From IMG/VR virus record IMGVR_UViG_3300029495_000075, positions 1-5,768 of that record: a stretch of DNA of 5,768 nucleotides. One strand, written 5' to 3'. Below, one piece after another: positions 1-5,768 of this stretch (position 1 is the first letter of the stretch; each line of letters starts with the position of its first letter). This DNA is from a virus. Below the pieces are notes generated by a model, which was not told the origin of the DNA, made no database searches, and saw nothing but the letters and a program-made list of their open reading frames with translations. A program made the position numbers and the translations under genes.

Positions 1-123
1 GGACATGATAGCGGCGGGCATCAATCCAATACTAGCGGCAAACAACGGCGCTACAGCAACACCAAGCGGAGCAAGTGCAAGCATCGGAACACAGCATTAC
101 AACCAGCAGAGCGCACAAGCGGC
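1..123. repeat. Left copy of the direct terminal repeat (identical to 5646..5768); assembly overlap of a circular genome
   Basis: Base-by-base comparison of 1..123 with 5646..5768 shows identity. The repeat lies inside a continuous ORF (VP2). Confidence 0.95.
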
Positions 124-502
124 GGCAGTGTCAGCGATGTATGAATACGGTAACAATACCGCAGAGTTAGCAAACAGATACCTGGAACTGGCAAAAAAAA
201 GCACAAGCGCGAAACAGTACCATTCTGCAAAAAGCTTTAAAGAAGCAGCAAGCAGTTTAGCACAGTCAAGCGCAAAACAGGTCAGCAATTACAACTATGC
301 GGCAAACAACTTACTCAACGAGTTGGGAGACGCAGGAGACAAGCTAAAAGACGCAGGAGAAAAGGCGGCCGAATCAGCAAAAGGCGCAGGAAGAAAAGCA
401 GCATCGGCCTTTAAAGACAGTTGGGAAAAAGGCGGGAAAAACATCACACCATACACGTCAATCAATCCTAACCAGATAATGGGCGCGTATAGAGGAGATT
501 AA
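1..502 (+). CDS. VP2: VP2 minor capsid / DNA pilot protein, C-terminal part. It continues the ORF that starts at 5257; the whole gene is 891 nt (296 aa) on the circle.
   Basis: The frame is continuous across the junction (codon at 5650 = codon at 5). The motif AERAFAKEMRGTAYQDTVKDMIAAGINPILAA matches the conserved gokushovirus VP2 core (..NTAYQR.V.D...AG.NP.L). The rest is Ala/Ser/Gln/Asn-rich. Stop TAA at 500..502. Confidence 0.8.
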   Translation, partial: DMIAAGINPILAANNGATATPSGASASIGTQHYNQQSAQAAAVSAMYEYGNNTAELANRYLELAKKSTSAKQYHSAKSFKEAASSLAQSSAKQVSNYNYAANNLLNELGDAGDKLKDAGEKAAESAKGAGRKAASAFKDSWEKGGKNITPYTSINPNQIMGAYRGD

Positions 503-680
503 GTTTTCAACAGTTTCAACAGTTTCAACAGGTTTTCAACAAAGAAATACACAAAAAAAATTGGCAATTTAACGAACTTTCAACAATTCAACAAGTTTTA
601 AACAAAAATTTCAACAAGAAAGAAGGCGATAAATATGCGTATCAACGCTAAAAATTAGACTTTTCAACAGTTTCAACAGA
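503..680 (+). repeat. Iteron-like array of the heptamer TTCAACA (often TTTCAACAG), all in one orientation
   Basis: Exact copies start at 506, 515, 524, 535, 579, 587, 610, 663 and 672. Degenerate copies are TTAAACA 598..604, ATCAACG 641..647 and GTCAACT 734..740. The first block has 9,9,11-nt spacing. The region is non-coding. Confidence 0.85.
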
Positions 681-682
681 CC

Positions 683-697
683 CTACTACTACTACTA
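683..697. repeat. Trinucleotide microsatellite (CTA)5
   Basis: ccCTACTACTACTACTAcaaaa read directly, in the intergenic region. Confidence 0.9.
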
Positions 698-739
698 CAA
701 AAAGTAATATATAAAGAAAAAAGAAAGAGAGGTGTCAAC

Positions 740-770
740 TGGCGCAAGATAGACAAGTAATCTTGCGCCA
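740..770 (+). promoter_or_regulatory. Perfect hairpin (11-bp stem, 9-nt loop AGACAAGTA) 5 nt upstream of the rep start. Candidate replication-origin stem-loop and/or translation-control element.
   Basis: TGGCGCAAGAT (740..750) pairs with ATCTTGCGCCA (760..770) with no mismatch. An SD-like GAGGTG at 729..734 lies 5 nt upstream of the stem, and an iteron-like TCAACT abuts the stem base. Confidence 0.6.
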
Positions 771-775
771 AACCT

Positions 776-1771
776 ATGCCATGTACAAACCCGAATGTTT
801 TCCAGATGAACACGAAAAAGCCAACCATGTGGGGAAGTCTAAACTACCTAAAGAAACAGGACCTAGAACAAACCATCATGGACGGCGTAAAAAAAGGAAA
901 CCTCGCATTATTGCCATGCGGAAAATGTGAATACTGCCGAAAACAGATGGCAGACCAATGGGCAACGAGAATAGAACTAGAGGCCCAAAAATGGAAAGAT
1001 GTGATTTTCGTTACAATGACCTACGATGAAGAACATGTTCCATACGGCGAAATTCTAAAAGGCTACCAAAGTATTCAATCTCAAACAGTAAGCAAAAGAG
1101 ACGTGCAGCTTTTTCTAAAGCGTCTCAGAAAAGCATACAAGAAACCGATAAAATACTTCATAGCAGGAGAGTACGGAGACAGAACAAAAAGACCACACTA
1201 CCACGGAATTTTTTTTGGACTAAAACCAGAGGATGGAGTATGGTACAAAAACCAAAAGGGCAACGCATACTTTAAGAGCGAATGGCTAACGAACTTATGG
1301 GGAAAAGGATTTGTAGACTTTTCCCCAGCAGCACCAGGCTCATACGCATATGTGGCACAGTACGTGAATAAAAAAGCAATCGGCGCAGAGCAGAGCACAA
1401 AATACTGGATGCAAGGCCGTGAGCCAGAGTTTAGAATCATGTCAAAAGGCATCGGGGAAAAGTACCTAAAAGAGCACATGAACGAAATACTAGAAACCGA
1501 CAACATCACATGCGCAGGAGGGCGGCAGAAAAGGCCACCAAGGTACTTTGATAAGCTACTTGATAAGGATACCAGCAAAGACACTGAAAACTATTTCAAG
1601 GCCCATTCTGACGAGCTGACAGCAGTGAGAGCCAAAAGACGAAGAAACGCAGTGCTAAGCCTTGTAAACTTAGAGCAAAACACCAGTGTTCCATACTCAA
1701 CATACCTAGAAATACAAAAAGAAAAAGACAAGCAAAAACAAAAGTGGAGAGAACCGAAAGAAACCTTATAG
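776..1771 (+). CDS. VP4: VP4 replication initiation protein (HUH rolling-circle endonuclease)
   Basis: The N-terminus MPCTNP.. and the Cys cluster PCGKCEYCR are typical of gokushovirus VP4. Motif 1 is FVTMTY. The HUH motif is PHYHGIFFG (HYH at 1196..1204). The catalytic tyrosine pair YVAQY sits at 1349..1351 and 1361..1363, followed by VNKK. Stop TAG at 1769..1771. Confidence 0.92.
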   Translation: MPCTNPNVFQMNTKKPTMWGSLNYLKKQDLEQTIMDGVKKGNLALLPCGKCEYCRKQMADQWATRIELEAQKWKDVIFVTMTYDEEHVPYGEILKGYQSIQSQTVSKRDVQLFLKRLRKAYKKPIKYFIAGEYGDRTKRPHYHGIFFGLKPEDGVWYKNQKGNAYFKSEWLTNLWGKGFVDFSPAAPGSYAYVAQYVNKKAIGAEQSTKYWMQGREPEFRIMSKGIGEKYLKEHMNEILETDNITCAGGRQKRPPRYFDKLLDKDTSKDTENYFKAHSDELTAVRAKRRRNAVLSLVNLEQNTSVPYSTYLEIQKEKDKQKQKWREPKETL

Positions 1772-1851
1772 CCAATAAAACAGGGAAAGCAGCGGCGGCA
1801 AAGTCTGACGGAGCGCGCCGACAATCTGACCTGCAAGCCGGTCTTGTCAAG

Positions 1852-1887
1852 AGGAGCGCCCGCGGGCGAGAGTTTAAAAGCGCTCCT
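1852..1887 (+). other. GC-rich stem-loop (8-bp stem AGGAGCGC/GCGCTCCT, 20-nt loop) overlapping a 10-bp palindrome GCCCGCGGGC (1858..1867)
   Basis: Read directly. It lies in a locally GC-rich non-coding island downstream of VP4. A second GGAGCGC copy at 1810..1816 can pair alternatively with GCGCTCC at 1880..1886. Confidence 0.45.
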
Positions 1888-1922
1888 ATCCTAGGGAAAA
1901 TGGAAAAAACCTCAAAAAAAGG

Positions 1923-1951
1923 TTGACTTTTTACCAAAAAAATGGTATAAT
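1923..1951 (+). promoter_or_regulatory. Near-consensus sigma70/sigmaA promoter P1: TTGACT, 17-nt spacer, TATAAT, with an extended -10 TG
   Basis: TTGACT at 1923..1928, a 17-nt spacer, TG at 1943..1944 and TATAAT at 1946..1951. It lies in a non-coding region 28 nt upstream of the 59-aa ORF start. Confidence 0.75.
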
Positions 1952-1978
1952 ATAATCGCAGAAAGGATGATGTAAACC

Positions 1979-2158
1979 ATGAAACAAAAAGAATATAAGT
2001 TCATTGCCCACATCACGCACAAAGACATGACAACAGAAGATAATATGTTCATCGACTACACCGCGAGCGCACGTTGCAGGGCGAGTAAAACAGCACAAAG
2101 ACAAGACGTAGAATCTGTACACCTTTACCGCATTGACAAAACAGAGATTTTTACATAA
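1979..2158 (+). CDS. Hypothetical 59-aa protein (MKQKEYKFIAHITHKDMTTEDNMFIDYTASARCRASKTAQRQDVESVHLYRIDKTEIFT), below the ORF-track cutoff
   Basis: ATG at 1979 is preceded by AGAAAGGA (1960..1967). The ORF is flanked by promoter P1 and a strong intrinsic terminator. Stop TAA at 2156..2158. I recognise no family. Confidence 0.6.
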   Translation: MKQKEYKFIAHITHKDMTTEDNMFIDYTASARCRASKTAQRQDVESVHLYRIDKTEIFT

Positions 2159-2161
2159 AAT
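2133..2161 (+). promoter_or_regulatory. Second near-consensus promoter P2: TTGACA, 17-nt spacer, TAAAAT
   Basis: TTGACA at 2133..2138, a 17-nt spacer (2139..2155) and TAAAAT at 2156..2161. It overlaps the 3' end of the 59-aa ORF. The predicted start near 2168 falls inside the 5' arm of the terminator stem. Confidence 0.5.
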
Positions 2162-2163
2162 AG

Positions 2164-2200
2164 AGGCAGGAAGCCAAAAAGGTTTCCTGCCTTTTATATT
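2164..2200 (+). terminator. Rho-independent terminator after the 59-aa ORF
   Basis: A 12-bp stem (2164..2175 with 2181..2192, one G-U pair), a 5-nt loop AAAAA, then TTTATATTT. Confidence 0.8.
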
Positions 2201-2220
2201 TAAAAGAAAGGGGGAACACA

Positions 2221-2337
2221 ATGGCACATCGTAGCGGCGCAGGCCGTGGCGACCAGCGGAAGTTTACACAAACCGCAAAGCGGACGAAAAACATCAACGT
2301 CCGACCGAAGGTAAGCCGGGGCGGCATCCGGCTGTAA
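2221..2337 (+). CDS. Small basic DNA-binding/packaging protein, 38 aa (gokushovirus ORF8 type; functional analogue of phiX174 J): MAHRSGAGRGDQRKFTQTAKRTKNINVRPKVSRGGIRL
   Basis: An SD AGAAAGGGGG (2205..2214) lies 6 nt before the ATG. The protein has about 11 Arg/Lys in 38 aa. From memory, the C-terminal RGGIRL resembles the ..MRGGIRF end of chlamydiaphage ORF8. Stop TAA at 2335..2337. Confidence 0.72.
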   Translation: MAHRSGAGRGDQRKFTQTAKRTKNINVRPKVSRGGIRL

Positions 2338-2371
2338 TGTTCCAAACGGAACAATGAAAGGAGGTGAACAA

Positions 2372-2479
2372 ATGGACTTTAATGAAAGCATGAACATTTT
2401 TTTGAAAATCCTCGCAATGCTGGATAAAATTTACCACGCAATTGTGAAGGAAGAGGAAGAGACTGAAGAGGAGGAGTAA
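2372..2479 (+). CDS. 35-aa peptide MDFNESMNIFLKILAMLDKIYHAIVKEEEETEEEE: an amphipathic hydrophobic helix plus a poly-acidic tail. Candidate lysis accessory or membrane-active factor.
   Basis: GAAAGGAGGTGA (2357..2368) is a perfect 12-nt anti-SD complement and lies 3 nt before the ATG at 2372. Its TAA (2477..2479) ends 1 nt before the GTG start of the peptidase gene. The peptidase SD is embedded in its Glu codons. Confidence 0.65.
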   Translation: MDFNESMNIFLKILAMLDKIYHAIVKEEEETEEEE

Positions 2480-2480
2480 G

Positions 2481-2876
2481 GTGGAACGTGAAGAATACAG
2501 CTTATTTAATCAGAGCACCCACCAAATAAGTGAACACTTCAAAGTAAGAGAATTTGCACAAAAAGACTTCCGATGTGACAAGGTAATTGTAGACAGAGAA
2601 CTTATAGACGTTTTGGAAGATATACGCGCACATTTCAACAAACCGGTGATTGTAACATCTGGATACCGGACACCAGAATACAACGCAAAAATCGGCGGTG
2701 TAAAAAACTCACAACACACAAAAGGCGCAGCGGCTGATATCCAAGTATCTGATATTCCGGCAAGATGGATACAAAAGTATCTGAAAGACAAATACCCGGA
2801 TAAATACGGCATCGGAAGTTATTTAACTTTTACACACATCGACGTAAGAACTAAAAAAGCACGTTGGAGGGGCTAA
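2481..2876 (+). CDS. Peptidase_M15 (M15_3/YcbK-like, LAS-fold zinc D,D- or L,D-peptidase): putative peptidoglycan hydrolase / endolysin, 131 aa
   Basis: GTG start with GGAGG (2470..2474) 6 nt upstream. Motifs are FKVREF..C, VTSGYRTPEYNAKIGGVKNSQH, KGAAAD and FTHIDVR. They give the H-x6-D...H zinc triad (H79, D86, H119). No N-terminal signal peptide is visible. Confidence 0.85.
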   Translation: MEREEYSLFNQSTHQISEHFKVREFAQKDFRCDKVIVDRELIDVLEDIRAHFNKPVIVTSGYRTPEYNAKIGGVKNSQHTKGAAADIQVSDIPARWIQKYLKDKYPDKYGIGSYLTFTHIDVRTKKARWRG

Positions 2877-2879
2877 AAA

Positions 2880-3134
2880 ATGACACTGAAATTCTACAGT
2901 TTTCATGATGCAATCACGAATGGATACAGCAGTCCTTTCTTACAGCAGAACAGGGCGCAGGCAATCCGCACTGCAAAGTGGAAAGCAAACGAATCAAAAA
3001 TGCAGGAAATCGAGGACATCAGCCTTATGGAGCTGGGCGACTTCGACACCGAAACCGGCGAAATGTTCGGAGCGAAACCAAACCAGCTGTGCAAACTAGT
3101 AGACCTTAAGGAGACGTACAATGTTAAATCCTAA
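2880..3134 (+). CDS. VP5: Conserved gokushovirus non-structural protein (VP5-like), 84 aa
   Basis: GGAGG (2866..2870) lies 9 nt upstream. The pattern ..SSPF....N.AQAIR......EDISLMELGDFDTETGE....P..L matches the small conserved gokushovirus protein as I remember it (PF...A.R.F...P.D..L...G.FD..TG). Confidence 0.6.
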   Translation: MTLKFYSFHDAITNGYSSPFLQQNRAQAIRTAKWKANESKMQEIEDISLMELGDFDTETGEMFGAKPNQLCKLVDLKETYNVKS

Positions 3135-3540
3135 CGTTCTAGTGCGATACTACGGAATACCAACCGAAAGAGTGACAAGCAAAACCGGCAGCGAAACAGC
3201 ACCAACGTGGAAAGCGGTAAAGCGACCAAACGGCACAACGGACTACATCCGACAACCGGATGAAAATGTCTACGAAAAAATTCAAAAGGCAGGCGAAGGA
3301 TACGACCTCGCAAGCGCAATCGCGAGACTAGAAGCCGGAGATTTTTCCATCAAAGCAAAGAGCACAATCTACACAGAGGGCACGCCACTGGAAAATCTGC
3401 CTAAAGACATTGTGACGATGCACGAAACGGCACAGAGGGCGGCGGAAACGCTGGAAGAGCTGAAACAGAAACAGCAGACCGAACAGCCGAAGCCGGAAGA
3501 AAAAAAGGAAGAGGTGAAGCAGAACGAACCGGAACAGTGA
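3121..3540 (+). CDS. VP3: Putative internal scaffolding protein (VP3-like), 139 aa with a charged KQKQQTEQPKPEEKKEEVKQNEPEQ tail
   Basis: AAGGAG (3108..3113) lies 7 nt upstream. It overlaps the previous ORF by 14 nt. Its position immediately upstream of VP1, its size and the segment Y.EGTPLENLPKD......A..A.E.LEEL loosely resemble gokushovirus VP3. The family call is tentative. Confidence 0.5.
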   Translation: MLNPNVLVRYYGIPTERVTSKTGSETAPTWKAVKRPNGTTDYIRQPDENVYEKIQKAGEGYDLASAIARLEAGDFSIKAKSTIYTEGTPLENLPKDIVTMHETAQRAAETLEELKQKQQTEQPKPEEKKEEVKQNEPEQ

Positions 3541-3543
3541 AAA

Positions 3544-3569
3544 CCATTTCGCGCAAGTGCCGCGAATGG
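3544..3569 (+). promoter_or_regulatory. Hairpin enclosing the VP1 initiation region (9 bp with one bulge, 7-nt loop CAAGTGC)
   Basis: CCATT(T)CGCG (3544..3553) pairs with CGCGAATGG (3561..3569). The GTG at 3557 is in the loop and the ATG at 3566 is in the 3' arm. There is no adjacent SD. Confidence 0.35.
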
Positions 3570-5218
3570 AAAGACCGCGATCAAAATTTGACCGCAGCCA
3601 TCAGCTCTTAACGACCATCAACGAAGGCGAACTGGTACCCATCTACATGGACGAAGTGCTACCAGGTGACACAGCACGGGTACAACTTAACGGGCTTATC
3701 AGAATGAGCACTCCTATCTATCCTATCATGGATAACTGTTACATGGATATATATTTCTTCTTTGTGCCTGCAAGACTTTTGTGGTATCACTTTGAAAATA
3801 TGTTCGGTGAAAATGAAACCGACTACTGGGCAGAAGATACGGAGTATTCAACTCCTAAATGCACCATCGGCGGCACCAGCGGCCTTGCAAATGGTTCCAT
3901 CGGCGACTATTTCGGACTGCCGACACAGGTAACGAACGCGCTGGAAGTGAACGCATTACCTGCACGAGCATACTGCAAAATATACAACGAGTGGTTCAGA
4001 GATGAAAATCTTGAAGCGCCGCTTATGGTGGGATACAAAAAGACGGATGACGGCGCAACAAATGCAGACGCAAGCAAAGTAACCGAAAATGCAAACGCTC
4101 TCGACCAGACGACCAACACCAGCGAAGCAACGTTGTATGCAATGAAACCAGCAAAGGTGAGCAAGTTCCACGATTATTTCACATCTTGCCTTCCTTCACC
4201 GTTGAAAAATGCAGAGCCGGTAACGCTGCCAATAACAGGAGCAGCGGGAATATATGCTTACTCAGACAAAGAACTAAAAAATAAAACAGAACAAAACATA
4301 AACAGCTTTACAAGTCAAACAGACGCCGGAGGAACACAAAAACAAAGACTTTACGACATGATCCTATGGGAAGGAACCCCGGCACAAACATATGTAGGAA
4401 ACGGAACGGAAAAAGAACTAAGCTATCTCGGAGCAGACCTTAGCAGTGTAACCGCAACAACGATTAACGACTTACGGCAGGCCATCGCACTGCAACATAT
4501 CTTCGAAGCAGATGCAAGAAACGGCACGAGGTACAGAGAATTCCTTTCCGGGACGTGGGGCATAACAAGTCCGGACAGCCGGCTGCAAATTCCAGAGTAC
4601 ATTGGCGGGCAGCGAATTGCAATCAATGTGAATCAGGTGGTGCAGACCAGCCAAACAGACACCACGACCGGGCAAGCACTGGGCAACACAGCGGCATACA
4701 GCCTAACGACCTGTTCAAAACAGATGGTAGACTATGCAGCAACAGAGTACGGCTATATCATCGGGCTGGCAGTGGTACGAGTGGAACACAGCTACCAGCA
4801 GGGCCTTGGAACCAAATGGACGCGCGGCGGCCGATTCACGTACTACGACCCGCGATTAGCGGCACTGGGCGAACAGCCAGTATACAACAGAGAAATCTAC
4901 GCAGACGGAAGCGAAAAAGATAGCCAGATTTTTGGCTATCAGGAAGCTTGGGCGGATTACCGCTACAAGCCTTCCTACGTAACCGGAGAAATGAGGTCAA
5001 ACTATCAAACGTCTTTGGATGCATGGCACTATGCAGACGACTATGACAAGCTGCCGACACTATCGGCAGAGTGGATTCAGGAAGGACGTGAAAACATCGA
5101 TAGGACTATTGCGGTAACGTCCGCAGTAAGTCACCAATTCTTGTGTGATTTCTGGTTCAATGAAACGTGGTACAGGGAAATGCCAATCTACAGTATCCCG
5201 GGCATCGAAAGAATCTAA
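3557..5218 (+). CDS. VP1: VP1 major capsid protein (Microviridae F-protein family). The start is GTG 3557 or, perhaps more likely, the in-frame ATG 3566.
   Basis: Hallmark gokushovirus motifs: SKFDRSH, LVPIYMDEVLPGDT, YFFFVPARLLW, HDYFTSCLP, TINDLRQAIALQ..E.DARNGTRY.E, RLQIPEYIGG. Stop TAA at 5216..5218. Confidence 0.95.
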   Translation: MPRMERPRSKFDRSHQLLTTINEGELVPIYMDEVLPGDTARVQLNGLIRMSTPIYPIMDNCYMDIYFFFVPARLLWYHFENMFGENETDYWAEDTEYSTPKCTIGGTSGLANGSIGDYFGLPTQVTNALEVNALPARAYCKIYNEWFRDENLEAPLMVGYKKTDDGATNADASKVTENANALDQTTNTSEATLYAMKPAKVSKFHDYFTSCLPSPLKNAEPVTLPITGAAGIYAYSDKELKNKTEQNINSFTSQTDAGGTQKQRLYDMILWEGTPAQTYVGNGTEKELSYLGADLSSVTATTINDLRQAIALQHIFEADARNGTRYREFLSGTWGITSPDSRLQIPEYIGGQRIAINVNQVVQTSQTDTTTGQALGNTAAYSLTTCSKQMVDYAATEYGYIIGLAVVRVEHSYQQGLGTKWTRGGRFTYYDPRLAALGEQPVYNREIYADGSEKDSQIFGYQEAWADYRYKPSYVTGEMRSNYQTSLDAWHYADDYDKLPTLSAEWIQEGRENIDRTIAVTSAVSHQFLCDFWFNETWYREMPIYSIPGIERI

Positions 5219-5228
5219 GAAAGGAGAA

Positions 5229-5254
5229 AGCCGGGCAAAGACCCGGCTATTTTT
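5229..5254 (+). terminator. Intrinsic terminator/attenuator hairpin between VP1 and VP2
   Basis: A 7-bp GC-rich stem AGCCGGG/CCCGGCT (5229..5235 with 5242..5248), a 6-nt loop, one A, then TTTTT (5250..5254). Confidence 0.6.
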
Positions 5255-5256
5255 AA

Positions 5257-5768
5257 ATGGGTACACTTTTATCATGGATGCCGTACATCATGCAGGGACT
5301 TAGCCTACTGACAAGCGTTGCAATGAGTTCAAACCAGAGCAGTGCAACAAGCAGCCAAAGAGCCGGAGAAGAAACAAGCAGCGGAAGCGAAACAACCACC
5401 GGAAGCCTGACAGCACCGCAACAAATCGGCTCAACACAGATTGGAACACCAACAGGCATCACCACATACAACAATCAGGGCAGCGTAAACATGGCAAACG
5501 GCATGAGCTTTTTAAGCTCTATTATCAGTAATCTGATGAACGCAGGAAGCCAAGCAAGCGCAAAAAAATACAACTCCGCAGAAGCGGCGGCAGAAAGAGC
5601 CTTTGCAAAGGAAATGCGCGGCACAGCATATCAGGACACTGTAAAGGACATGATAGCGGCGGGCATCAATCCAATACTAGCGGCAAACAACGGCGCTACA
5701 GCAACACCAAGCGGAGCAAGTGCAAGCATCGGAACACAGCATTACAACCAGCAGAGCGCACAAGCGGC
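5257..5768 (+). CDS. VP2: VP2 minor capsid / DNA pilot protein, N-terminal part. It runs off the window and continues at position 124 of the circle.
   Basis: The frame is open from ATG 5257, directly after an in-frame TAA at 5254..5256, to the window end, and matches 1..502. Alternative in-frame ATGs are at 5278, 5290 and 5323. The N-terminal region is Ser/Thr/Gly/Gln-rich. Confidence 0.78.
   Translation, partial: MGTLLSWMPYIMQGLSLLTSVAMSSNQSSATSSQRAGEETSSGSETTTGSLTAPQQIGSTQIGTPTGITTYNNQGSVNMANGMSFLSSIISNLMNAGSQASAKKYNSAEAAAERAFAKEMRGTAYQDTVKDMIAAGINPILAANNGATATPSGASASIGTQHYNQQSAQA
5646..5768. repeat. Right copy of the direct terminal repeat (identical to 1..123)
   Basis: Same comparison; offset 5645. 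Confidence 0.95.

Follow-up and report, generated by a model that had tools for sequence, protein, structure and literature searches.

In the bacterial basal unwinding system, a DnaA box, usually one of a tandem pair, lies 0-16 bp from at least three DnaA-trios (PMC8287927, PMC6669920), and a sequence is accepted as a box if it has no more than 2 mismatches to TTATCCACA or to a species-specific box (PMC8287927). The DnaA-trio is 3'-NAN-5', with the consensus 3'-GAT-5'. An A+T-rich unwinding element comes after the trios (PMC7561715); at C. difficile oriC2, for example, the trio sequence 5'-CACCTACTACTATTACTACTATGA-3' has three boxes and a GC cluster before it and the unwinding element after it (PMC7561715). 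TnnT repeats on the strand opposite the trios are the DnaD recognition element, which is bound as single-stranded DNA (ssDNA) (PMC10201434). Here we analysed a 5768-nt stretch of viral DNA (the window; IMG/VR record IMGVR_UViG_3300029495_000075, positions 1 to 5,768), which holds a circular gokushovirus genome of 5645 nt plus a 123-nt terminal overlap and has 93% identity to Gokushovirus WZ-2015a from human faeces (KT264784). Our subject is an array of TTCAACA repeats in the intergenic region between VP2 and VP4, the latter coding for the rolling-circle replication initiator. The array is probably the DnaA-box part of an oriC-like module of about 225 bp (504-727) that copies the dnaA-dnaN origin of a Clostridia host, most likely one of the Oscillospiraceae or Ruminococcaceae.

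Exact search reproduced all nine TTCAACA copies listed in the original prediction, each in the same orientation on the plus strand (starts at 506, 515, 524, 535, 579, 587, 610, 663 and 672, together spanning 506-678), and a genome-wide count confirmed that the only other exact copy lies at 2634. The minus strand of the whole window gave zero exact copies. In dinucleotide-preserving shuffles the mean was 1.15 copies, and 10 copies were reached in 0 of 200. The three imperfect copies also claimed were recovered as TTAAACA at 598 (one mismatch), ATCAACG near 642 and GTCAACT near 733 (two mismatches each), while the division into three clusters was borne out by centre-to-centre spacings of 9, 9, 11 / 8, 11, 12 / 9. 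The repeat unit is the 9-mer NTTTCAACA, i.e. (T/G/C/A)TTTCAACA, and TTTCAACA is present in 8/9 copies. The original prediction had left the array unlinked to the (CTA)5 run at 683-697 and to the A+T stretch that follows. All of these are one element, in which three 9-mer clusters are succeeded by GACC, (CTA)5 and a stretch of 83% A+T:

504 to 541, plus strand: box cluster 1, four tandem 9-mers, putative DnaA boxes (TTTTCAACA 504-512, GTTTCAACA 513-521, GTTTCAACA 522-530, TTTTCAACA 533-541).
577 to 616, plus strand: box cluster 2 (CTTTCAACA 577-585, AATTCAACA 585-593, the variant TTTTAAACA 596-604, ATTTCAACA 608-616).
637 to 648, plus strand: mini-palindrome GCGT-ATCA-ACGC, situated between clusters 2 and 3, which the centroid fold shows as a 4-bp hairpin.
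661 to 678, plus strand: trio-proximal box pair (TTTTCAACA 661-669, GTTTCAACA 670-678).
679 to 682, plus strand: GC cluster GACC, separating the final box from the trios.
683 to 697, minus strand: five consensus DnaA-trios (3'-GAT-5'), which read (CTA)5 on the plus strand.
698 to 727, no strand assigned: A+T-rich stretch CAAAAAGTAATATATAAAGAAAAAAGAAAG, putative duplex-unwinding element, 25/30 bases A or T.

Laid beside the basal unwinding system, the module agrees element by element. The box TTTTCAACA at 661-669 has 2 mismatches to the highest-affinity DnaA box TTATCCACA and departs from the relaxed consensus TTWTNCACA at position 6 only; its partner GTTTCAACA ends 4 nt before the trios, of which there are five consecutive consensus copies on the minus strand; and the order runs from the GC cluster (679-682) through the trios to the A+T stretch (698-727). 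The box pair 661-678 is the predicted counterpart of DnaA-boxes #6/#7 of that system. (CTA)5 occurs once in the genome, with 0.03 occurrences expected by chance, and its T at each third base of both strands gives a repeated TnnT, the DnaD recognition motif, on both. All 51 distinct phage cores, and six bacterial loci as well, have an A+T-rich stretch after the trios. The mini-palindrome shows compensatory changes in relatives (ACGT-AGTA-ACGT in locus L004 and GCGT-GGCA-ACGC in locus L080); by eye, the host dnaA-dnaN spacers described below also have a small palindrome ahead of the last box pair. The element appears to be built along the lines of a chromosomal basal unwinding system and would be expected to work as one. 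Its location, the VP2-VP4 interval of a microvirus of 5645 nt, is not that of a chromosome origin, however, so it is not itself a chromosomal oriC. An Rfam search gave no match, nor did the module match anything in a plasmid collection. We rejected a promoter or set of -35-like repeats, as the promoter scan gave no site in 503-775 and the module is not bound to one gene across lineages. We likewise rejected the (CTA)n run as a look-alike of the pMV158 nick site TACTACG/AC, the trios accounting for the run, which is also present in host origins.

The module has counterparts in bacteria. Three tandem boxes were sought in 185,579 species genomes, which gave at least 120 loci, and 4 of the 120 listed fall within the spacer between dnaA and dnaN: L108 and L157 from Oscillospiraceae, L125 from Ruminococcus and L130 from Clostridiales. 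Pfam identified dnaA in L108, L130 and L125 and dnaN in L108 and L130; tblastn with the L108 and L130 proteins located both genes in L157 and dnaN in L125. No microvirus genes were found in the 120 bacterial loci listed, the four origins included, and 114 of the 120 had neither a box-trio unit nor dnaA nearby. The host spacers contain 9-24 TTCAACA boxes in both orientations, with TTCCACA mixed in for L108 and L125 and not for L130 and L157. Because L157 and L130 contain zero canonical TTWTNCACA, against 24 and 9 TTCAACA respectively, the TTCAACA-type sites must be the DnaA boxes of these two. A trio-proximal box pair closes the spacers of all four, which end as follows:

L108: AGTTTTCAACAGTTTCAACA-CCCC-CTACTACTACTACTA-aacatatatac.
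L125: TTTTCCACAGTTTCAACA-TACC-(CTA)5.
L157: TTTTCAACAGTTTCAACA-CCCC-CTATTACTACTACTG.
L130: TTTTCAACATTTTCAACA-CCA-CTACTAATACTACTA.

Each of these ends is then followed by 73-93% A+T, and the order and orientation of the elements are the same as in the window. Window positions 659-697 are 94.9% identical to L125 over 39 nt and 94.6% identical to L108 over 37 nt. The bases flanking TTCAACA on its 5' side (G/A, then T, then T) are alike in phage and host boxes, and the spacings are mainly 9 and 11 bp in both.

The DnaA proteins of L108, L125, L130 and L157 share RDHSTIVY at the place of DHTTVIH in B. subtilis (PDB 8btg) and Aquifex, and all four are without the proline equivalent to E. coli P423. 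The changes fall at the equivalents of P423, T435 and H439, which are listed as base-specific contacts. These recognition-helix changes correlate with the TTCAACA boxes, which suggests a clade-specific box preference and makes the changes a candidate specificity determinant in gut Oscillospirales. In a major clade of gut Clostridia, the comparison points to TTTTCAACA as the probable DnaA box, in correlation with the RDHSTIVY changes. Oscillospirales are the plausible host group for a human-gut virus, and Firmicutes-targeted gut Microviridae have been documented independently via CRISPR spacers (PMC8530359).

The same loci bear on the idea that the repeats are sites for another host protein, such as a Spo0A-like regulator, or provide homology for recombination with the host origin, to which we give next to no weight. 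The Spo0A box TGTCGAA reads TTCGACA on the other strand, one mismatch from TTCAACA, a related gokushovirus prophage is found in a spore-former, and near-identity with host origins extends over 37-39 nt. Yet no other DnaA-box type stands beside the trios in L157 and L130, canonical DnaA boxes substitute at the same positions in other phages, and the listed bacterial loci contained no microvirus genes. The prophage itself (L083 3677-9640, VP4 42% identity) lies in a 101-kb spore-forming Firmicute contig (GCA_052838085.1), with an ftsY-like gene on one side and sporulation genes on the other; the direct repeat ATGTTTTCGTAAAAGCTG borders it at both ends, and it carries no TTCAACA array.

Among close relatives, the array is stable. 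Where VP4 identity is 79-99% (69 IMG/VR loci and four GenBank genomes), it stands at fixed distances from the VP4 start (-258, -249, -238, -194, -186, -175, -163, -110 and -101 in the largest subclade), and none of these loci and genomes has a minus-strand TTCAACA copy. Close-relative loci apparently without the array are incomplete contigs. Cluster 1 is kept in relatives, its fourth box being the canonical TTTTCCACA in L041, and the variant-box position of cluster 2 is TTTTCAACA in L001, L003, L004 and the 80% clade. An alignment of 51 distinct intergenic sequences was dominated by one subclade, so pairwise comparison with diverged relatives was used; against five of these, identity was 88% for boxes, 91% for trios and 61% for spacers, as measured in pairwise, non-independent comparisons anchored on the repeats. 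Both boxes and trios appear to be under purifying selection. The original prediction therefore stands in viewing the repeats as conserved, of a binding type and part of a replication-control region, with phasing fixed in more than 60 relatives and boxes better conserved than spacers. Repeat number shows no drift, and with number and phasing constant over more than 60 genomes simple slippage is excluded. An assembly chimera with host DNA was also rejected: besides GenBank genomes of French, Irish and Chinese origin, over 100 contigs from IMG/VR, ENA and Logan carry the module, and its flanks are phage-specific.

These conservation figures matter for the suggestion that the boxes form a DnaA sink, titrating host DnaA onto many replicative-form copies and thereby blocking or delaying host initiation, or reporting DnaA status. 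We regard this as unlikely. About 10 boxes per genome multiplied by many replicative-form copies would make a large sink, a tolerance of position and orientation (see below) suits it, and there is a precedent in B. subtilis, where the DnaA-box regions of oriC named incA-C inhibit chromosome initiation when carried on plasmids. For titration, boxes alone suffice, yet the box pair, GC cluster, at least three consensus trios and A+T stretch are found together in 51/51 cores. The trios are, moreover, conserved as well as the boxes, which points to selection for unwinding.

Distant relatives show that the module is independent of VP4. A VP4 homologue was found in 3810 GenBank records, exceeding 60% identity in four only. 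Six genomes with VP4 identities of 35-41% had no TTCAACA array and no other repeat array, and the stem-loop beside VP4 was present in them. The single intermediate relative from a large protein collection, L080 (VP4 53%), shares the motif, the three-part layout, (CTA)n and the A+T box. In L081 (VP4 43%) the whole unit is reverse-complemented and downstream of VP4, and the same holds for L041, whose VP4 is 81% identical. Scanning viral contigs for three tandem boxes returned at least 118 loci, 37 of them microviruses, most with VP4 at 31-45% identity; among the matches listed, the strict box-(CTA)≥3 pattern was found in 24/37 microviruses versus 0/81 non-microvirus contigs. We collected at least 51 distinct box-trio cores accompanied by VP4 of 32-100% identity, and more than 100 gokushovirus genomes with the 9-mer array. 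The module lies upstream of VP4 in gene orientation at a minimum of 65 loci and inverted downstream of VP4 at a minimum of 26, the other 11 array-bearing loci being mostly circular-permutation wraps. The canonical TTTTCCACA occupies homologous box positions, including the CTA-adjacent box, in L041, L081 and most inverted lineages. In VP1 and VP4 trees, which are rough neighbour-joining trees, array-bearing lineages are not monophyletic: they are spread over four or more deep clades, mixed with array-less ones. The motif does not co-vary with VP4, and the element is bound to neither strand nor VP4 side. It is also dispensable for some viruses that share the VP4-side hairpin, the position of which in the window is:

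731 to 770, plus strand: GGTGTCA and an 11-bp stem (740-750 / 760-770) with the loop AGACAAGTA, from the fold.

This stem-loop is outside the DnaA-type module and is a general gokushovirus element. An explicit inverted-repeat search yielded 53 distinct sequences, each with a perfect inverted repeat of at least 7 nt, and the pattern throughout, array-less lineages included, is GGTGTCA, a stem that is always paired but lineage-variable, and a loop A(T/G)(C/A)CAAG. As a candidate origin for VP4 it is preferable to the module. On the coding strand of L074-L079, the loop is CTCTTGAT, the reverse complement of the loop in the window and similar to the site CAACTTG/ATA at which phiX174 is cleaved. 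Should nicking occur within the loop, it would be on different strands in different lineages.

The original prediction had offered the repeats as VP4 (Rep) iterons, which would position the initiator beside a nick site in the stem-loop in the style of CRESS-DNA viruses or the pMV158 bind locus, and had proposed that their sequence might co-vary with VP4. Short direct repeats in a single orientation, immediately 5' of the rep gene and with a conserved stem-loop some 60 nt away, do look the part. Iterons co-vary with their Rep, however, and here the same 7-9-mer accompanies VP4 of 32-100% identity in 51 distinct cores, so the expected co-variation did not appear. Nor is there the fixed position and orientation relative to a nick-site stem-loop, as the module occurs in two configurations, may be inverted on the other side of VP4, and in some genomes is moved 230 nt from the hairpin by an insert. 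Array-less gokushoviruses have the same hairpin and a comparable VP4, while identical boxes, together with the terminal unit, are found in bacterial dnaA-dnaN origins with no microvirus genes nearby. We hold this explanation to be very improbable. The insert, of about 230 nt, separates the A+T box from the hairpin in some genomes with VP4 identities of 93-99% and stands beside the inverted module in distant lineages. It is GC-rich, contains a tract of alternating CG/CA (GCGCGCACGCGCGCGAAACGCGCACGCGCACGC) besides two strong hairpins, and was located at 2800-3030 in L001, 5230-5460 in L003 and 5010-5150 in L081.

The other proposal of the original prediction was a single-strand signal on the packaged strand, either a complementary-strand origin (with entry of primase, RNA polymerase or DnaD) or a packaging signal; this, too, we find scarcely credible. 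Within this genome the strand bias is absolute, and 5'-CTA-3' is a preferred initiation triplet of Firmicute primase. TnnT binds DnaD as ssDNA (PMC10201434), and its occurrence on both (CTA)n strands leaves DnaD entry on the single strand a small probability. The signal would need to be strand-specific, yet the module is on the coding strand at 65 or more loci and on the opposite strand at 26 or more, so that in the latter genomes the coding strand carries it reverse-complemented. Folded as ssDNA, 503-775 has no significant structure (z = -1.5), and the boxes are unpaired in the centroid structure, lying outside hairpins, unlike the DnaA-box A-site. Primase initiation at CTA on the viral strand was rejected in particular, as the module occurs inverted.

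The two orientations, together with an ssDNA form lacking structure, suggest action on duplex DNA. For the oriC-like module that we favour, we infer DnaA binding, unwinding, helicase loading and a biological pay-off along the following lines. First, the incoming single strand would be converted to the duplex replicative form, on which host DnaA-ATP would bind the roughly ten 9-bp boxes. Second, the oriented box pair at 661-678 would steer the DnaA oligomer onto the trios at 683-697, the minus strand being the trio strand, and the A+T-rich stretch at 698-727 would melt. Lastly, in Firmicutes, DnaD, DnaB and DnaI would then load the replicative helicase. The pay-off would be opening and replication of the duplex in dependence on the host initiator, allowing theta-type amplification or plasmid-like maintenance, with DnaA being soaked up as a by-product. 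Other pay-offs could be help in opening the DNA for VP4, or DnaA titration, the former being weakened by the 230-nt insert in genomes with VP4 identities of 95-99%, by L041 and by the flipped configurations. More tentatively, we postulate that these phages could be dual-mode replicons, combining VP4-driven rolling-circle replication with a duplex that fires as a miniature oriC under host DnaA. Such a duplex could be copied in step with the host cell cycle and could persist in gut Clostridia as a plasmid-like episome (a carrier state), a natural 'oriC plasmid' whose module is exchanged among deeply divergent microvirus lineages. We regard this as possible, with more doubt than confidence.

Several points weigh against reading the module as a working copy of a host origin. 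Some of the boxes, those spaced 8-9 bp apart, touch or overlap, which may make simultaneous occupancy of all boxes doubtful, and positions 1-2 of the 9-mer are more variable than in classical DnaA boxes. To our knowledge, DnaA binding to TTTTCAACA has been shown experimentally in no organism. Replication of phiX174 is independent of DnaA and many gokushoviruses manage without the module, and because of this it is accessory. The host origins are predictions from metagenome-assembled genomes, and two further such genomes, from the environment, of Anaerolineae (L100) and Mesoaciditoga (L199), carry the same two boxes, CTA trios and an A+T-rich unit away from dnaA. These two units may be origins with the same box variant in unrelated phyla; the L199 array (2480-2800) lies between groEL and a phosphoesterase gene.

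In the window, the plus strand carries every gene:

Wrapping the genome ends and ending at 502, plus strand: VP2, with its stop codon at 500-502.
776 to 1771, plus strand: VP4, rolling-circle replication initiator (ATG 776; PF23343), with an HUH-type motif (HYH) read from the sequence.
Small open reading frames, plus strand.
2481 to 2876, plus strand: M15 peptidase.
2880 to 3134, plus strand: VP5.
3121 to 3540, plus strand: VP3.
3557 to 5218, plus strand: VP1.

The only Shine-Dalgarno-like candidate for VP4 is GAGAGG at 726-731, 44 nt 5' of the ATG at 776. The 740-770 stem-loop sits between the two, which would come close together once the hairpin folded in the mRNA; this suggests that VP4 translation is structure-dependent. 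Downstream of VP4, window positions 1771-1966 comprise a GC-rich non-coding block and adjoining promoter with 85-88% identity to the pig-faeces microviruses MG945382 and MG945388, the rest of whose genomes has no megablast-level match to the window; the block may be a non-coding module swapped among microviruses. The sequence at 1923-1951 is close to a perfect sigma-70 promoter (TTGACT-17-TATAAT, the -10 box being extended by TG), and this promoter type fits a Firmicute or Proteobacterial host better than a Bacteroidota host. Hairpins resembling intrinsic terminators are found 3' of a 59-aa open reading frame (2162-2194) and 3' of VP1 (5229-5248).

Gokushoviruses are among the most abundant human-gut phages; next to nothing is known of how their replication is controlled, and for most of them the host has yet to be identified. 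A copy of a host origin on a rolling-circle ssDNA phage would, if true, mean use of host DnaA and a departure from the phiX174 model, and might account for long-term persistence without an integrase. A box variant and box-trio unit that match Oscillospiraceae and Ruminococcaceae origins could serve as a sequence-based host predictor, and the proposal can be tested directly with short oligonucleotides and purified proteins. In the full-text literature, as far as its incomplete coverage goes, no paper linked Microviridae or gokushoviruses to DnaA boxes, oriC or iterons.

Our module can finally be placed among known systems. It resembles the iterons of CRESS-DNA viruses and geminiviruses and the bind repeats of pMV158 in having same-orientation short repeats near a stem-loop and an HUH-type initiator gene; those iterons, however, co-vary with Rep and are fixed to the nick site, whereas the phage motif is invariant, flips and matches host origins. 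Like the A-site of the ABC primosome (pBR322, R6K), it would belong to a small replicon using DnaA outside oriC, but the A-site requires a box paired in an ssDNA hairpin, and the phage boxes have no complementary partner in an unstructured region. In DnaA-titrating clusters such as datA and the inc regions and DnaA-box clusters of B. subtilis, a group of boxes is sufficient; the phage has such a group, and its conserved trios and A+T stretch exceed the needs of titration. The plasmid and plasmid-prophage origins P1 oriR, pSC101, F, RK2 and R6K offer a parallel as replicons with their own initiator and host DnaA boxes. They are Proteobacteria theta replicons in which a few boxes accompany Rep iterons and a trio unit is missing, unlike the phage, a rolling-circle ssDNA replicon of probable Clostridia hosts with a complete box-trio-unwinding unit. 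With the basal unwinding system of bacterial oriC (B. subtilis incC, C. difficile oriC2) the module shares order, orientation and spacing, as well as extra box clusters upstream. It differs from bacterial oriC in its small size (only about 225 bp and about 10 boxes) and in its setting, a 5.6-kb ssDNA phage with its own rolling-circle initiator and not the interval between dnaA and dnaN, and the phage copies have flanks in common (CTACAACAAGTTA and onwards, and the mini-palindrome) which the host spacers examined do not contain.

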